Shown here piece after piece: positions 2,213-4,990 of a stretch of 50,331 bases of DNA; the first letter of the stretch is position 1, and the number at the start of each line of letters is the position of its first letter. The DNA comes from a virus (lineage: Duplodnaviria > Heunggongvirae > Uroviricota > Caudoviricetes): IMG/VR virus record IMGVR_UViG_2734482547_000008. One strand, 5' to 3'. The position numbers were made by a program, and so were the translations under genes. The notes beneath the pieces are model-generated. The model had not been told where the DNA came from, searched no databases, and worked only from the letters and a program-made list of their open reading frames with translations.

Positions 2213-2467
2213 TTACATCATGGTGCTGTCAGTTCCGGGCTGAGCCGGGTCTGGTTGCTCTGGCTGCGCGTCGGTTTTCGGCTCATTATCAGCATCACTG
2301 GCCGCAACTGCTGGCCCAATAAGTTTTGCCAGCACTTCATCAACGTAAGTGTCGATTTGTGCCTCAAAATCCTTGCGGACCTGCGCTTTCAGCAACTTAT
2401 TTACTTCACCGGAATACAGTGCCTGTTTTACCAGGTCTTCAGTGACGGTGCCTTTAATTTCTGGCAT
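2213..2467 (-). CDS. Hypothetical acidic protein (84 aa)
   Basis: ATG at 2465-2467 preceded by AAGGAGGA at optimal spacing. Acidic, Pro/Gln-rich C-terminus. Confidence 0.5.
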   Translation of the reverse strand: MPEIKGTVTEDLVKQALYSGEVNKLLKAQVRKDFEAQIDTYVDEVLAKLIGPAVAASDADNEPKTDAQPEQPDPAQPGTDSTMM

Positions 2468-2502
2468 GTATATCCTCCTTATGCGGGAATAAAGCCCTGC
2501 AA

Positions 2503-2685
2503 TCAGGGCTGGGTCGGGTCTTTTGGGAGCGGAGTTACCTGCGCTGTTTTACTGAGTTTTTCAGCTGCTGCGTCCTCAATTTTGCGGCGAACATAATTTC
2601 TGATGGCCTTATAACCACCACTCACCAGATATAACGCACATACTGCCGTGCAGAAATACAATAAAATAAGCTGTAAAAATGTCAT
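2503..2685 (-). CDS. Small single-pass membrane peptide (60 aa)
   Basis: ATG at 2683-2685 preceded by GGGAGGG. Sequence MTFLQLILLYFCTAVCALYLVSGGYKAIRNYVRRK has one hydrophobic helix and a charged tail. A hairpin (AGCCCTG...CAGGGCT) overlaps its stop. Confidence 0.5.
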   Translation of the reverse strand: MTFLQLILLYFCTAVCALYLVSGGYKAIRNYVRRKIEDAAAEKLSKTAQVTPLPKDPTQP

Positions 2686-2700
2686 TATCCCTCCCAATTA

Positions 2701-2727
2701 TTGACATGGTGTTGACACCGGTAATAT
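2701..2727 (+). promoter_or_regulatory. Candidate sigma70 promoter for a short + strand transcript
   Basis: Two TTGACA hexamers (2701-2706, 2712-2717) and TAATAT (2722-2727); spacing is 15 bp from the first hexamer. Reads toward the strong terminator at 2781-2822. Confidence 0.3.
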
Positions 2728-2780
2728 CTGTTAGGTAAAAAGGTGCACTGCATTTTTTGCTTTGGATATAACGATCTTTT

Positions 2781-2822
2781 TGCCGCCGGTTTCTTGTTTT
2801 CCCTTACCGGCGGCATTTTTTT
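2781..2822 (+). terminator. Intrinsic terminator on + strand (end of candidate small RNA)
   Basis: 10-bp GC-rich stem (TGCCGCCGGT 2781-2790 / ACCGGCGGCA 2806-2815), 15-nt loop, then a run of 7 T (2816-2822). On the - strand the stem is followed by A residues, so it is orientation-specific. Confidence 0.55.
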
Positions 2823-2829
2823 ATCCTGC

Positions 2830-4884
2830 TTACGCGTTATTCACTTCCACCACGATACTGTCAATCAGTACCGGGTAAGTCGCATTTTTAGTGATATCGG
2901 TCACGCGCAACTTGTCTGCCGTAAACGTGCCGACCGGAGACTGCGACAGCATGAATGGTGTCCCGTCCTTACCATCAATGACCGGCGTCACCTCAATACT
3001 GTTGTTACCGGCAAAACGGAAGCCCAGCGTATGCCATTCGTTATTAAATGCGCCGAATGACCCCAGCTTCGTGTTCTGCGCCGTGTTTCCTTTGTGATAC
3101 ATCACGTTAAGGTCTGTGGCATCGCTCTGTACGTAGAACGATGCCAGCAGGTTATGACCGGCATTTCCTTCCAGAGTAACCCCTTGCGGCAGGGCAGAAA
3201 CCGGCCAGTACAGCGCCAGTGCGTACTGATTAGCCGTAAGCGCGCCATCGAGTTTAAAACGACAACTGACAAGACCACCTTTACCCAGCAGGTCCGCACC
3301 ATTACCAGCATCATGCTCAAGGTACCAGGGGGCTCTTCCTGTTTCCTTGGTCAGTTTCATTGCCTTACCCCCGCTGGCTCCGGCATCATCCACGATTTGA
3401 GCCTTGCCACCTCCGGCAGCCCAACCCTGTGGTGTCAACCGTCCTTCAGACTCAGATGCCCGGTAAGCAAATAGCGTACTCATCGTCGTGGTGTCTGCGG
3501 GTGGCGTGGACGGTTTTGATGGTGTATCAGGTGACGGCTTCTCATCCGGTGGTGTCACGGTCTGCCCGCGCATCAGTTCAGCCGTGCGCCCTGCATGGAG
3601 CATAATAGCTGAGGCCAGACGGTCTGAAATGACGCCCCTGCGTGCCCATGAGCTGAAATGGCTGTCACGCTGTGTCGAAACAAAACTGCCCTGGGTTCGG
3701 GATGCTGCACCGTAATACCCGACAGCCACAATATCCGGGTCTTCCGCCGGAGCATTCGTTGGCGTGCTCTGTCCATTCTCATCCGTCAGGAACGGTACAA
3801 AGAAAATTTTCTGTGCTTCCTTGCCTTTGTAGCCACCGTATACTGCCTCATATTTATCGGTGCCAGCGTTTTTCCAGTAATACGTGGTATCACCGCAAAT
3901 CCACGGCACCGTGGTGGCATTTCCACTCACGCACTGCGCAGCAAGCGGAGCCAGGTCAGTTCTGAACTGCTGAACCATGGCCGTGAATAAACTATTATGC
4001 TGCTGGCTTCCTGAGGCAAGGTCTGCCTCTCCCTGCATCCAGACCACAGCCAGAAGTTTGTTTTTCGGGTTTTTCGCCAGCGCGACTTTGGTGCGGCTTA
4101 CCAGGTCCTGATACAGAGGTTTACCGGCCCCCCAGCGTGAAGAATCAGCGGAAGCACCGCTGGCCTCACTGAATGAGCCGTCGGCTCCAGTGGTGAATGC
4201 TGACCCGCCACGACAACAGGGCACCAGAAGTATCCCGGCATTCTGTGGGATATAGGGAAGCAGTTTTTTGGCAATATGCAACCCCTGACCGACAGTCCCG
4301 TACTGGCCTTTTGCCAGATCAGCTTTCGGGTGGTTTATCCCGCTCATATCCTGAACATCATGCAGGCAGTGGTCTGCCGGAATGATGTCGTTGTATGTAC
4401 ACGACGTACCGTTGGGCGTTACCGTACTGCGGCGTGCCAGTTGCTTAATGCGTGGGTCCGGGCGGTCAAACGAATCCGGTAACGGCAGCCCCTCGCCGTA
4501 GGCCATGCCATTTGACTGACCCGCGAGAATGACAACAAAGTAATATTCCGGCTCTGAACTGCTGCCATTCGTGCTACCGGAAGGCCCGGCGTTATCCGGT
4601 GCATTCCAGTCGGAGGGCGTGAGCGTTCCGGCCACGTCAGATGTGATTGGAATGATGCCAGTCACGCCTGAACTGGTGATTTCTGCACTGGGATTACCGG
4701 ATACCGGCATTACCCATAATGGCTCTTTCGTGCTGAAGCGGATCACGCAGTCTGCGAAAGTGATCCCCCCTTTATTACCCGAAGGGCGGAAAGGGCTTTC
4801 AATAAATGCCACCGTGCCACCGGCAACCTTGACTGAAAACTCTCCGGGCATGGCGGAGAGCATTTTCCACTTGGAGTCTGACAT
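2830..4884 (-). CDS. SASA/SGNH-family carbohydrate esterase-like protein (684 aa, sialate O-acetylesterase-like) with C-terminal beta-rich domain
   Basis: ATG at 4882-4884. Motifs ILAGQSNGMAYGEG (GQSN block) and VVWMQGEADL are typical of SASA/SGNH esterases. Pro/Ser/Thr-rich linker (PPDEKPSPDTPSKPSTPPADTTT), then a ~200-aa C-terminal domain. No N-terminal signal peptide. Phage-like GC content. Confidence 0.65.
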   Translation of the reverse strand: MSDSKWKMLSAMPGEFSVKVAGGTVAFIESPFRPSGNKGGITFADCVIRFSTKEPLWVMPVSGNPSAEITSSGVTGIIPITSDVAGTLTPSDWNAPDNAGPSGSTNGSSSEPEYYFVVILAGQSNGMAYGEGLPLPDSFDRPDPRIKQLARRSTVTPNGTSCTYNDIIPADHCLHDVQDMSGINHPKADLAKGQYGTVGQGLHIAKKLLPYIPQNAGILLVPCCRGGSAFTTGADGSFSEASGASADSSRWGAGKPLYQDLVSRTKVALAKNPKNKLLAVVWMQGEADLASGSQQHNSLFTAMVQQFRTDLAPLAAQCVSGNATTVPWICGDTTYYWKNAGTDKYEAVYGGYKGKEAQKIFFVPFLTDENGQSTPTNAPAEDPDIVAVGYYGAASRTQGSFVSTQRDSHFSSWARRGVISDRLASAIMLHAGRTAELMRGQTVTPPDEKPSPDTPSKPSTPPADTTTMSTLFAYRASESEGRLTPQGWAAGGGKAQIVDDAGASGGKAMKLTKETGRAPWYLEHDAGNGADLLGKGGLVSCRFKLDGALTANQYALALYWPVSALPQGVTLEGNAGHNLLASFYVQSDATDLNVMYHKGNTAQNTKLGSFGAFNNEWHTLGFRFAGNNSIEVTPVIDGKDGTPFMLSQSPVGTFTADKLRVTDITKNATYPVLIDSIVVEVNNA

Positions 4885-4960
4885 CGTCTTTTCTGCCTGT
4901 TTCTGAATTAAACAGAGTCAGAATAGCGACCGCTGAAAAATATGTGTTTTGCGGAAATTC

Positions 4961-4990
4961 AAAAAAGCGTCACGGTACTTTTGGTGACGG
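4961..4990 (-). terminator. Possible weak terminator overlapping the gin stop
   Basis: On the - strand, a 6-bp stem (CGUCAC / GUGACG) with a 10-nt loop, followed by CUUUUUUG. The stem is short. Confidence 0.3.

Follow-up and report, generated by a model that had tools for sequence, protein, structure and literature searches.

A probable Mu-like-prophage version of the lambdoid NanS-p cassette, with a replaced N-terminal domain

The chromosomal gene nanS of Escherichia coli belongs to the sialic-acid regulon. Phage-borne relatives of its product, the NanS-p esterases, are discussed as fitness or virulence accessories of Shiga toxin (Stx) phages that let enterohaemorrhagic E. coli (EHEC) feed on O-acetylated mucin sialic acids. 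The nanS-p cassette of lambdoid and Stx prophages has been described (PMC10462455); the gene lies between Q/stx and holin S in the late operon, and in one lambdoid prophage the late region reads Q, tRNAs, nanS-p, DUF1378, DUF826, holin. Lambdoid NanS-p is active on Neu5,9Ac2 and on mucin and is induced with the late genes (PMC8065619, PMC10462455). Here we report on a stretch of DNA of 50,331 nucleotides, the IMG/VR virus record IMGVR_UViG_2734482547_000008 (hereafter the window), which contains a Mu-like prophage in reverse orientation, with its right-end genes on the minus strand. The first-pass annotation, made from the sequence without database searches, had noticed additional DNA between gin and com-mom and regarded it as a cargo module. 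The additional DNA is real: the distance from the gin stop codon to the com start is 3,608 bp in the window, made up of the cassette and a variable slot, compared with 94 bp and no cassette in phage Mu (NC_000929). The same nanS-p/DUF1378/DUF826 trio is found in lambdoid prophages, and the region is therefore a known cassette rather than a new kind of cargo. Taken as a whole, the locus is probably best explained as the Mu-like-prophage version of the lambdoid/Stx NanS-p cassette, consisting of nanS-p, DUF1378, DUF826 and a terminator. The three open reading frames (ORFs) have the coordinates first assigned to them, and the features of the cassette are the following.

2830-4884, minus strand: ORF of 684 amino acids (aa) of nanS-p type, stop codon included
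4645-4884, minus strand: N-terminal domain of the 684-aa protein (residues 1-80), predicted all-beta, with a possible cupin-like small barrel
4555-4644, minus strand: Ser/Gly/Thr/Pro-rich disordered linker (residues 81-110), with a predicted local distance difference test (pLDDT) below 50 for residues 83-107
3595-4554, minus strand: catalytic SASA/SGNH esterase domain (residues 111-430), from the 3PT5 match, Pfam SASA and motifs
3481-3594, minus strand: interdomain Pro/Ser/Thr linker (residues 431-468), from the sequence, the Pro/Ser/Thr stretch itself being 446-462
2830-3480, minus strand: C-terminal lectin-like jelly-roll domain, DUF6645 (residues 469-684 and stop codon), from 6YP6 and Pfam
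2781-2815, folding on both strands: GC-rich hairpin of 10 bp just past the nanS-p stop codon
2503-2685, minus strand: DUF1378 protein of 60 aa (Pfam DUF1378, PF07125; phrog_494)
2213-2467, minus strand: DUF826 protein of 84 aa (Pfam DUF826, PF05696; phrog_311)
2171-2206 (stem 2181-2206 plus T-tract), minus strand: intrinsic terminator closing the cassette, from folding against shuffles

Residues 110-428 of the 684-aa protein match PDB 3PT5, the E. coli 9-O-acetyl-N-acetylneuraminate esterase NanS (YjhS), with an E-value of 1.8e-117, and residues 469-683 match PDB 6YP6, the C-terminal domain of a phage NanS-p (E 7.1e-98). Profile searches against Pfam returned SASA (PF03629, 1.5e-13) and DUF6645 (7.4e-68). 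The SGNH blocks are intact (GQSN 122-125, CCRGGS 223-228, WMQGE 282-286 and RDSH 406-409), the GQSN and R-x-S-H blocks are those of NanS, and the catalytic serine and histidine, S124 (block I nucleophile) and H409 (last block), align with NanS residues. According to Pascal et al. (PMC10462455), NanS and NanS-p share NanS-specific variants of the SGNH blocks, and the window protein has the same variants. The four aromatic residues suggested to form the sugar site in the lectin-like domain (PMC10462455) are kept as well, Y554, Y559, Y584 and F654 corresponding to Y510, Y515, Y540 and F611 of vb_24B_21, and the interdomain linker is 100% identical to that of many lambdoid alleles. Judged from these matches, the 684-aa protein is by family a NanS-p-type sialate 9-O-acetylesterase, and its C-terminal domain a predicted jelly roll of carbohydrate-binding type. 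NanS itself is a single-domain chain of 337 aa by alignment, devoid of the N-terminal and lectin-like C-terminal domains found here. Most of what had been read from the letters thus stands, including the esterase family with its GQSN and WMQGE blocks, the Pro/Ser/Thr linker, the C-terminal domain that could bind carbohydrate and the missing signal peptide: no hydrophobic N-terminus was found in the 684-aa protein, whose maximum Kyte-Doolittle hydropathy over a 19-residue window (KD19) is 1.03.

The likeness to the lambdoid cassette goes beyond the protein family. The NanS-p proteins of lambdoid/Stx phages, such as those of 933W (L0105/z1466) and phi24B (vb_24B_21/gp84), have the same catalytic block variants, in many alleles the same linker, and a 6YP6-type C-terminal domain; like the window protein they carry no signal peptide and are followed by DUF1378 and DUF826, and the DNA is 85-100% identical over 1.95 kb. 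A count over the phage collection gave 363 records with the NanS-p catalytic domain and 309 with DUF1378, the spacing of the two being constant. The differences are four. The carrier is a transposable Mu-like myovirus instead of a lambdoid phage; the place of the cassette is between gin and the mom promoter (Pmom) and not between Q/stx and holin S; the DUF826 partner is of a distinct subtype; and the N-terminal DUF1737 of lambdoid NanS-p has an unrelated counterpart here, an all-beta domain of about 80 aa with no Pfam family. As a separate observation, phage 434 (OL657226.1, 43633-44604) has a 'SASA family carbohydrate esterase' 72% identical to the window catalytic domain, located in the annotated region of 434 non-homology.

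The genes and signals that surround the cassette identify its carrier.

4970-5542, minus strand: gin, G-segment DNA invertase (Pfam Resolvase 1.6e-51 and HTH_7; PHROG DNA invertase 1.9e-94)
4885-4969, minus strand: gin to nanS-p intergenic region of 85 bp, with the end of a hairpin, a TTCCGCAAA motif and the inverted repeat CTGTTTAATTCAGAAACAG
1362-2170: variable slot between the cassette terminator and Pmom, with orf78, orf68 and orf99
1405-1429, minus strand: Dam-site (GATC) block of the Pmom regulatory region, aligning with the Mu block
1161-1361, minus strand: com (Pfam Zn_ribbon_Com 2e-12)
470-1207, minus strand: mom, right end of the prophage (Pfam Mom 2.4e-77)

The gin gene is directly upstream of the cassette on the same strand, and gin, com, mom and the Pmom Dam-site block have the order and strand that they have at the right end of phage Mu. 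The Dam-site block beside com aligns with the AATCGATCG...GATCGATTA block upstream of com in Mu; since it still stands beside com, the site at which the cassette and the variable slot entered lies between the gin stop codon and Pmom. Besides the Pfam matches of gin, com and mom, Mu-like identity is supported by window proteins 97-98% identical to the annotated Mu transposase and AAA ATPase of the Sp18-like prophage. Prophage Sp18 of the Sakai O157:H7 strain has the same layout, and its head and replication genes are 96-98% identical to those of the window. The O157:H7 Sp18-like prophage carries the cassette too, with a homologue of 679 aa (WP_010917876.1), and the Sp18-type cassette is a diverged allele, with 61.5% identity at the N-terminus, 69% in the catalytic domain and 72% in the C-terminal domain. 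The published descriptions of Sp18 that we searched do not mention the esterase. Compared with an O157 Sp18-like prophage (L040; window 7467-38354), the window prophage is a mosaic: identity is 96-98% in the genes for head, packaging, lysis and transposition, 73-77% in tail sheath, tape measure and gp44, and 61-81% in gin and the fibre assembly gene.

All 34 of the 34 IMG/VR loci with this N-terminus share one gene order, as does each E. coli locus examined: invertible fibre segment, gin, nanS-p, DUF1378, DUF826, variable slot, com-mom. Of 5,426 complete E. coli genomes, 28 have the window-type N-terminus and 205 the Sp18-type one; the sum, 233, equals the number of these genomes that carry this com-mom. 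Copies of this prophage are inserted at elfC, ldcC, in other prophages and elsewhere, and the cassette is seen across many serotypes, O157, O26 and O91 among them. The cassette is thus a fixed component of Sp18-type Mu-like prophages of E. coli and not sporadic cargo, a situation that appears to be undescribed. The first-pass annotation had proposed a survey of Mu-like prophages and had held that conservation of these genes at this position in Mu-like phages generally would speak against its module; this turned out to be true in part, the cassette standing here in every Sp18-type prophage examined and being absent from phage Mu. One consequence concerns allele counts, as those based on lambdoid phages or on DUF1737 miss the copy on the Mu-like prophage, present in about 4% of complete E. 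coli genomes; genomes with such an additional copy include O157:H7, O26 and O91 strains.

The slot between the terminator and Pmom is outside the conserved cassette, and its content differs among related loci. In the window it holds orf78 (1937-2173, minus strand) and two overlapping plus-strand ORFs of 68 and 99 aa, orf68 (1768-1974) and orf99 (1476-1775). The only family match among the slot ORFs is that of the plus-strand pair to phrog_26524, of unknown function; Pfam, NCBIfam and PADLOC gave no match for them, and for the six ORFs searched NCBIfam and PADLOC returned nothing meaningful. O157, O26 and other strains have one ORF of 154 aa as the plus-strand gene, which is annotated as frameshifted in several genomes; further relatives have unrelated DNA in the slot.

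The one unusual part of the cassette had been overlooked at first, namely that the first ~100 residues of the 684-aa protein form a separate, unannotated domain. NanS-p homologues occur in two architectures, one of about 647 aa with DUF1737 (PF08410) in lambdoid phages, the other of 678-691 aa without DUF1737, whose first ~100 residues are those of the window protein. A Pfam search with the N-terminal domain found neither PF08410 nor any other match at E<=10. Among 1.84 billion representative proteins a single distant relative was retrieved (30% identity), which likewise begins a NanS-p-like ORF that comes right after gin in a Mu-like prophage; this third N-terminal type is absent from the complete E. 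coli genomes searched. A scan of genome contigs with the N-terminal alignment gave 54 pattern matches, none of which was a relative. Since a single-sequence AlphaFold2 model of the domain was unusable (pLDDT 34), modeling was repeated with an alignment of 6 sequences, which yielded an all-beta fold for residues 1-80 (pLDDT 73-90) followed by the disordered stretch. The predicted fold differs from DUF1737, which consists of a helix and three strands. We propose a domain of about 80 aa, all-beta and possibly with a cupin-like small barrel; Foldseek support is weak, as the model had no match at E<=1e-3 in PDB and BFVD and the best viral ones were uncharacterised phage proteins of about 90 aa (E 1.5e-2, template modelling score 0.5-0.6). 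In phi24B gp84, DUF1737 decorates the capsid as a hexamer, and the protein is proteolytically processed (bioRxiv 10.64898/2026.04.10.717836). The capsid-binding DUF1737 of lambdoid NanS-p is replaced here by an unrelated, Mu-like-specific domain that is seen only after gin, which appears to be undescribed.

The history of the cassette was read from sliding-window DNA identity against a lambdoid allele and against the Sp18-type, and falls into three segments.

5000-4575, gin 3' end, intergenic region and N-terminal domain: lambdoid 42-57% (unrelated), Sp18-type 54-65%
4574-2640, catalytic domain, linker, C-terminal domain and 5' half of DUF1378: lambdoid 85-100%, Sp18-type 53-86%
2639-2200, 3' half of DUF1378 and DUF826: lambdoid 43-75%, Sp18-type 77-92%

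At the left breakpoint, identity to the lambdoid allele climbs from about 42% to 89-98% across 4574-4394, at the disordered linker after the N-terminal domain. The right breakpoint, at ~2640, is inside the DUF1378 gene, where the sequence passes from lambdoid-like to Sp18-like. Among window-type proteins the N-terminus is 96-100% identical, and the catalytic and C-terminal domains 81-100%; these two domains of the Mu-type proteins are as near to lambdoid alleles as to one another. The pattern indicates a recent homologous recombination that put a lambdoid-prophage allele in place of the central 1.95 kb, an event that appears to be undescribed; the N-terminal domain and DUF826 are of the Mu lineage. 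With Mu-lineage flanks around a lambdoid-like core, the cassette has long resided in the Mu-like lineage and exchanges its core with lambdoid prophages. Sp18-type prophages (loci L002, L042, L044 and L045) were repeatedly found inserted in lambdoid prophages: in a portal gene, beside the late-region tRNAs, among tail genes, and inside Stx1a and Stx2c phages. Such insertions bring two kinds of nanS-p close together and would give an opportunity for exchange.

The same data bear on a second, tentative explanation, that the N-terminal beta domain docks the esterase on the Mu-like particle, at the capsid or the tail, as the counterpart of DUF1737. Displayed on the virion, the enzyme would serve the phage, by helping it to adhere to mucus or to penetrate it, or by destroying a receptor. 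Such a role agrees with the chemistry of a released esterase; what changes is the place of action and the beneficiary. The precedent of phi24B gp84 speaks for docking, with a capsid-decoration domain at the position, before a disordered linker, that a different domain occupies here. The type of N-terminal domain also follows the type of phage strictly, whereas phages of different type exchange the catalytic and C-terminal domains; the window-type N-terminus is highly conserved while its payload varies, and the nanS-p gene lies at the end of the tail-fibre region. Co-evolution with the capsid, which we tested as further support, came out against it: when window-type is compared with Sp18-type prophages, identity is 97.8% for the major head protein, 96.4% for the portal and 96.5% for the protease, but only 61.5% for the N-terminal domain. 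The divergence of the domain resembles that of the neighbouring gin, fibre and tail block (61-81%) and not that of the capsid, as linkage alone would produce, and the structure model of the domain depends on an alignment of 6 sequences. We therefore regard docking as possible but doubtful, and grade no higher the idea that unrelated phage morphologies may share an exchangeable enzyme and lectin payload, each joined to its own lineage anchor, with breakpoints in the linker. The domain swap and the ongoing exchange of the core amount to a natural experiment on the purpose of the N-terminal domain, a timely one given the capsid report on DUF1737.

Under the explanation that we prefer, a Mu-borne version of the released lambdoid esterase, the enzyme would be made in the cytoplasm and set free when the induced prophage lyses the cell, as for the characterised lambdoid alleles. 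It would then strip mucin sialic acids of 9-O-acetyl and other O-acetyl groups, so that Neu5,9Ac2 becomes Neu5Ac, with the lectin-like domain holding the enzyme on its glycan substrate, and the sialic acid so freed may become usable by the surviving lysogen population. The chemistry can be assigned with confidence by analogy, from the family and from the 85-100% DNA identity to lambdoid alleles. As the 684-aa protein has no export signal, the substrate would be reached only by lysis or on the virion. Among the three roles listed in the first-pass annotation, the NanS-type esterase thus named the right family, while a role on surface glycans fared worse. In that role the enzyme would de-O-acetylate the O-antigen or capsule of its host or of target cells, O-acetylated polysialic acid being one example, and by masking or unmasking a receptor cause lysogenic conversion or superinfection exclusion. 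Since gin is, by textbook knowledge, expressed in Mu lysogens and the hairpin at its stop codon is weak, low read-through into the cassette in a lysogen is conceivable. A review has raised a surface-glycan role for NanS-p as an open possibility (PMC8065619). However, a protein with neither signal peptide nor transmembrane segment has the surface of an intact cell out of its reach; the catalytic and lectin-like domains are 85-100% identical in DNA to those of the lambdoid alleles, whose family acts on free or mucin-bound O-acetylated sialic acids; and the cassette spans serotypes with unrelated O-antigens (O157, O26, O91 and others). We consider this role very improbable.

Transcription would enter the cassette from gin or from late or fibre transcripts further upstream and end at the terminator after DUF826, as its anatomy suggests. 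The terminator is as clean as had been claimed (-14 kcal/mol, z-score -4.65, a stability reached by none of 200 shuffles). The hairpin and U-tract at the gin stop codon, from which a promoter of the module's own had been deduced, fared otherwise. The structure has a stem of 6 bp (4968-4973 with 4984-4989) and a loop of 10 nt, overlapping the gin 3' end, with a T6 run at 4961-4966 inside the intergenic region; at -7.4 kcal/mol and a z-score of -1.28, with 23 of 200 shuffles folding as well, it is no better than chance, which leaves the separate promoter without basis and is the reason for placing the entry of transcription in gin or upstream. The TTCCGCAAA motif upstream of nanS-p (4948-4956) is conserved in part between lineages; directly ahead of the nanS-p start codon, the blocks of the inverted repeat CTGTTTAATTCAGAAACAG (4897-4915) are conserved between the intergenic regions of the window-type and the Sp18-type. 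For the motif TYCCGCAAA the count is 7, compared with 1.44 expected, and an exact copy of the 16-mer CCGCAAAWCCKGCCCC precedes both the lysozyme gene and the head protease gene (20895-20912 and 29082-29099). We regard CCGCAAAWCCKGCCCC/TTCCGCAAA as a possible late-activator site, a lead only; a C-dependent late promoter before nanS-p was not accepted, since the match is a half-match and the 9-mer TTCCGCAAA also occurs inside ORFs. The hairpin just past the nanS-p stop codon is strong (-20 kcal/mol, z-score -4.5 on the minus and -4.7 on the plus strand; 0 of 200 shuffles fold as well). It has A-runs flanking it on the sense strand and so reads as a canonical terminator for antisense (plus-strand) transcription.

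Several points weigh against a lysis-released esterase of the lambdoid kind. The purpose of the replaced N-terminal domain is not covered by this model. No credible promoter was found, with 4 sigma-70-like sites compared with 5.0 expected, none of them within 4885-4969 and the nearest at 5012-5040, inside gin; upstream of nanS-p only the first half of CCGCAAAWCCKGCCCC, that is TTCCGCAAA, is present. The phi24B protein is virion-bound and processed (bioRxiv 10.64898/2026.04.10.717836), so that simple release by lysis may be an incomplete account even for the lambdoid alleles. Finally, the literature searched makes no mention of NanS-p in a Mu-like phage.

The two small proteins had been described as a single-pass membrane peptide and an acidic protein, each behind a strong Shine-Dalgarno sequence, and both descriptions hold. 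The DUF1378 profile matches residues 5-62 of a 64-aa reading (E 1.2e-31), as the ORF can be extended to a TTG at 2697; the ATG at 2685 is preferred for its GGGAGGG Shine-Dalgarno sequence and agrees with the RefSeq call. A single hydrophobic segment (residues 3-21, 2.27 in the 19-residue Kyte-Doolittle window) is followed by a basic tail, and from this hydropathy an N-terminal transmembrane helix is predicted. The DUF826 protein has an isoelectric point of 4.24 and an AAGGAGG Shine-Dalgarno sequence; its profile matches residues 1-57 (E 6.4e-16), and the tail is lineage-specific. The gene is 77-92% identical to the Sp18-type at the DNA level, compared with 43-52% to the lambdoid allele, and tblastn found the window DUF826 in only two Mu-like inserts among 50,697 phage records. 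By sequence, it is a distinct subtype of the Mu lineage. DUF1378 and DUF826 remain with nanS-p here although the lysis genes are ~26 kb away, which argues that both work with the esterase rather than with the holin, their usual neighbour. Their retention after relocation is the first contextual clue that ties both functionally to the esterase.

Some further observations concern the surroundings of the cassette. In some Sp18-type prophages com is kept and a C5 cytosine DNA methyltransferase (PF00145) replaces mom (L002, 3165-4217; L045, 3563-4615). An origin of this enzyme in the lambdoid Q-S region was rejected, since the methyltransferase of that region is of the unrelated N6/N4 type and the two families have no similarity. 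Rfam and tRNA scans of the whole window gave no matches. At the edge of the prophage, a host-gene fragment (90-341) has a translation that looks like the N-terminus of a glycoside hydrolase family 1 (GH1) phospho-beta-glucosidase; it is 98% identical to two Campylobacter phage records, MG065686 and MG065691, matches that probably reflect contamination of these records with E. coli DNA. The tail-fibre and assembly segment beside gin (5543-7467) is found in both orientations among near-identical loci (L019, L020 and L036-L038), which is consistent with active Gin-mediated inversion.

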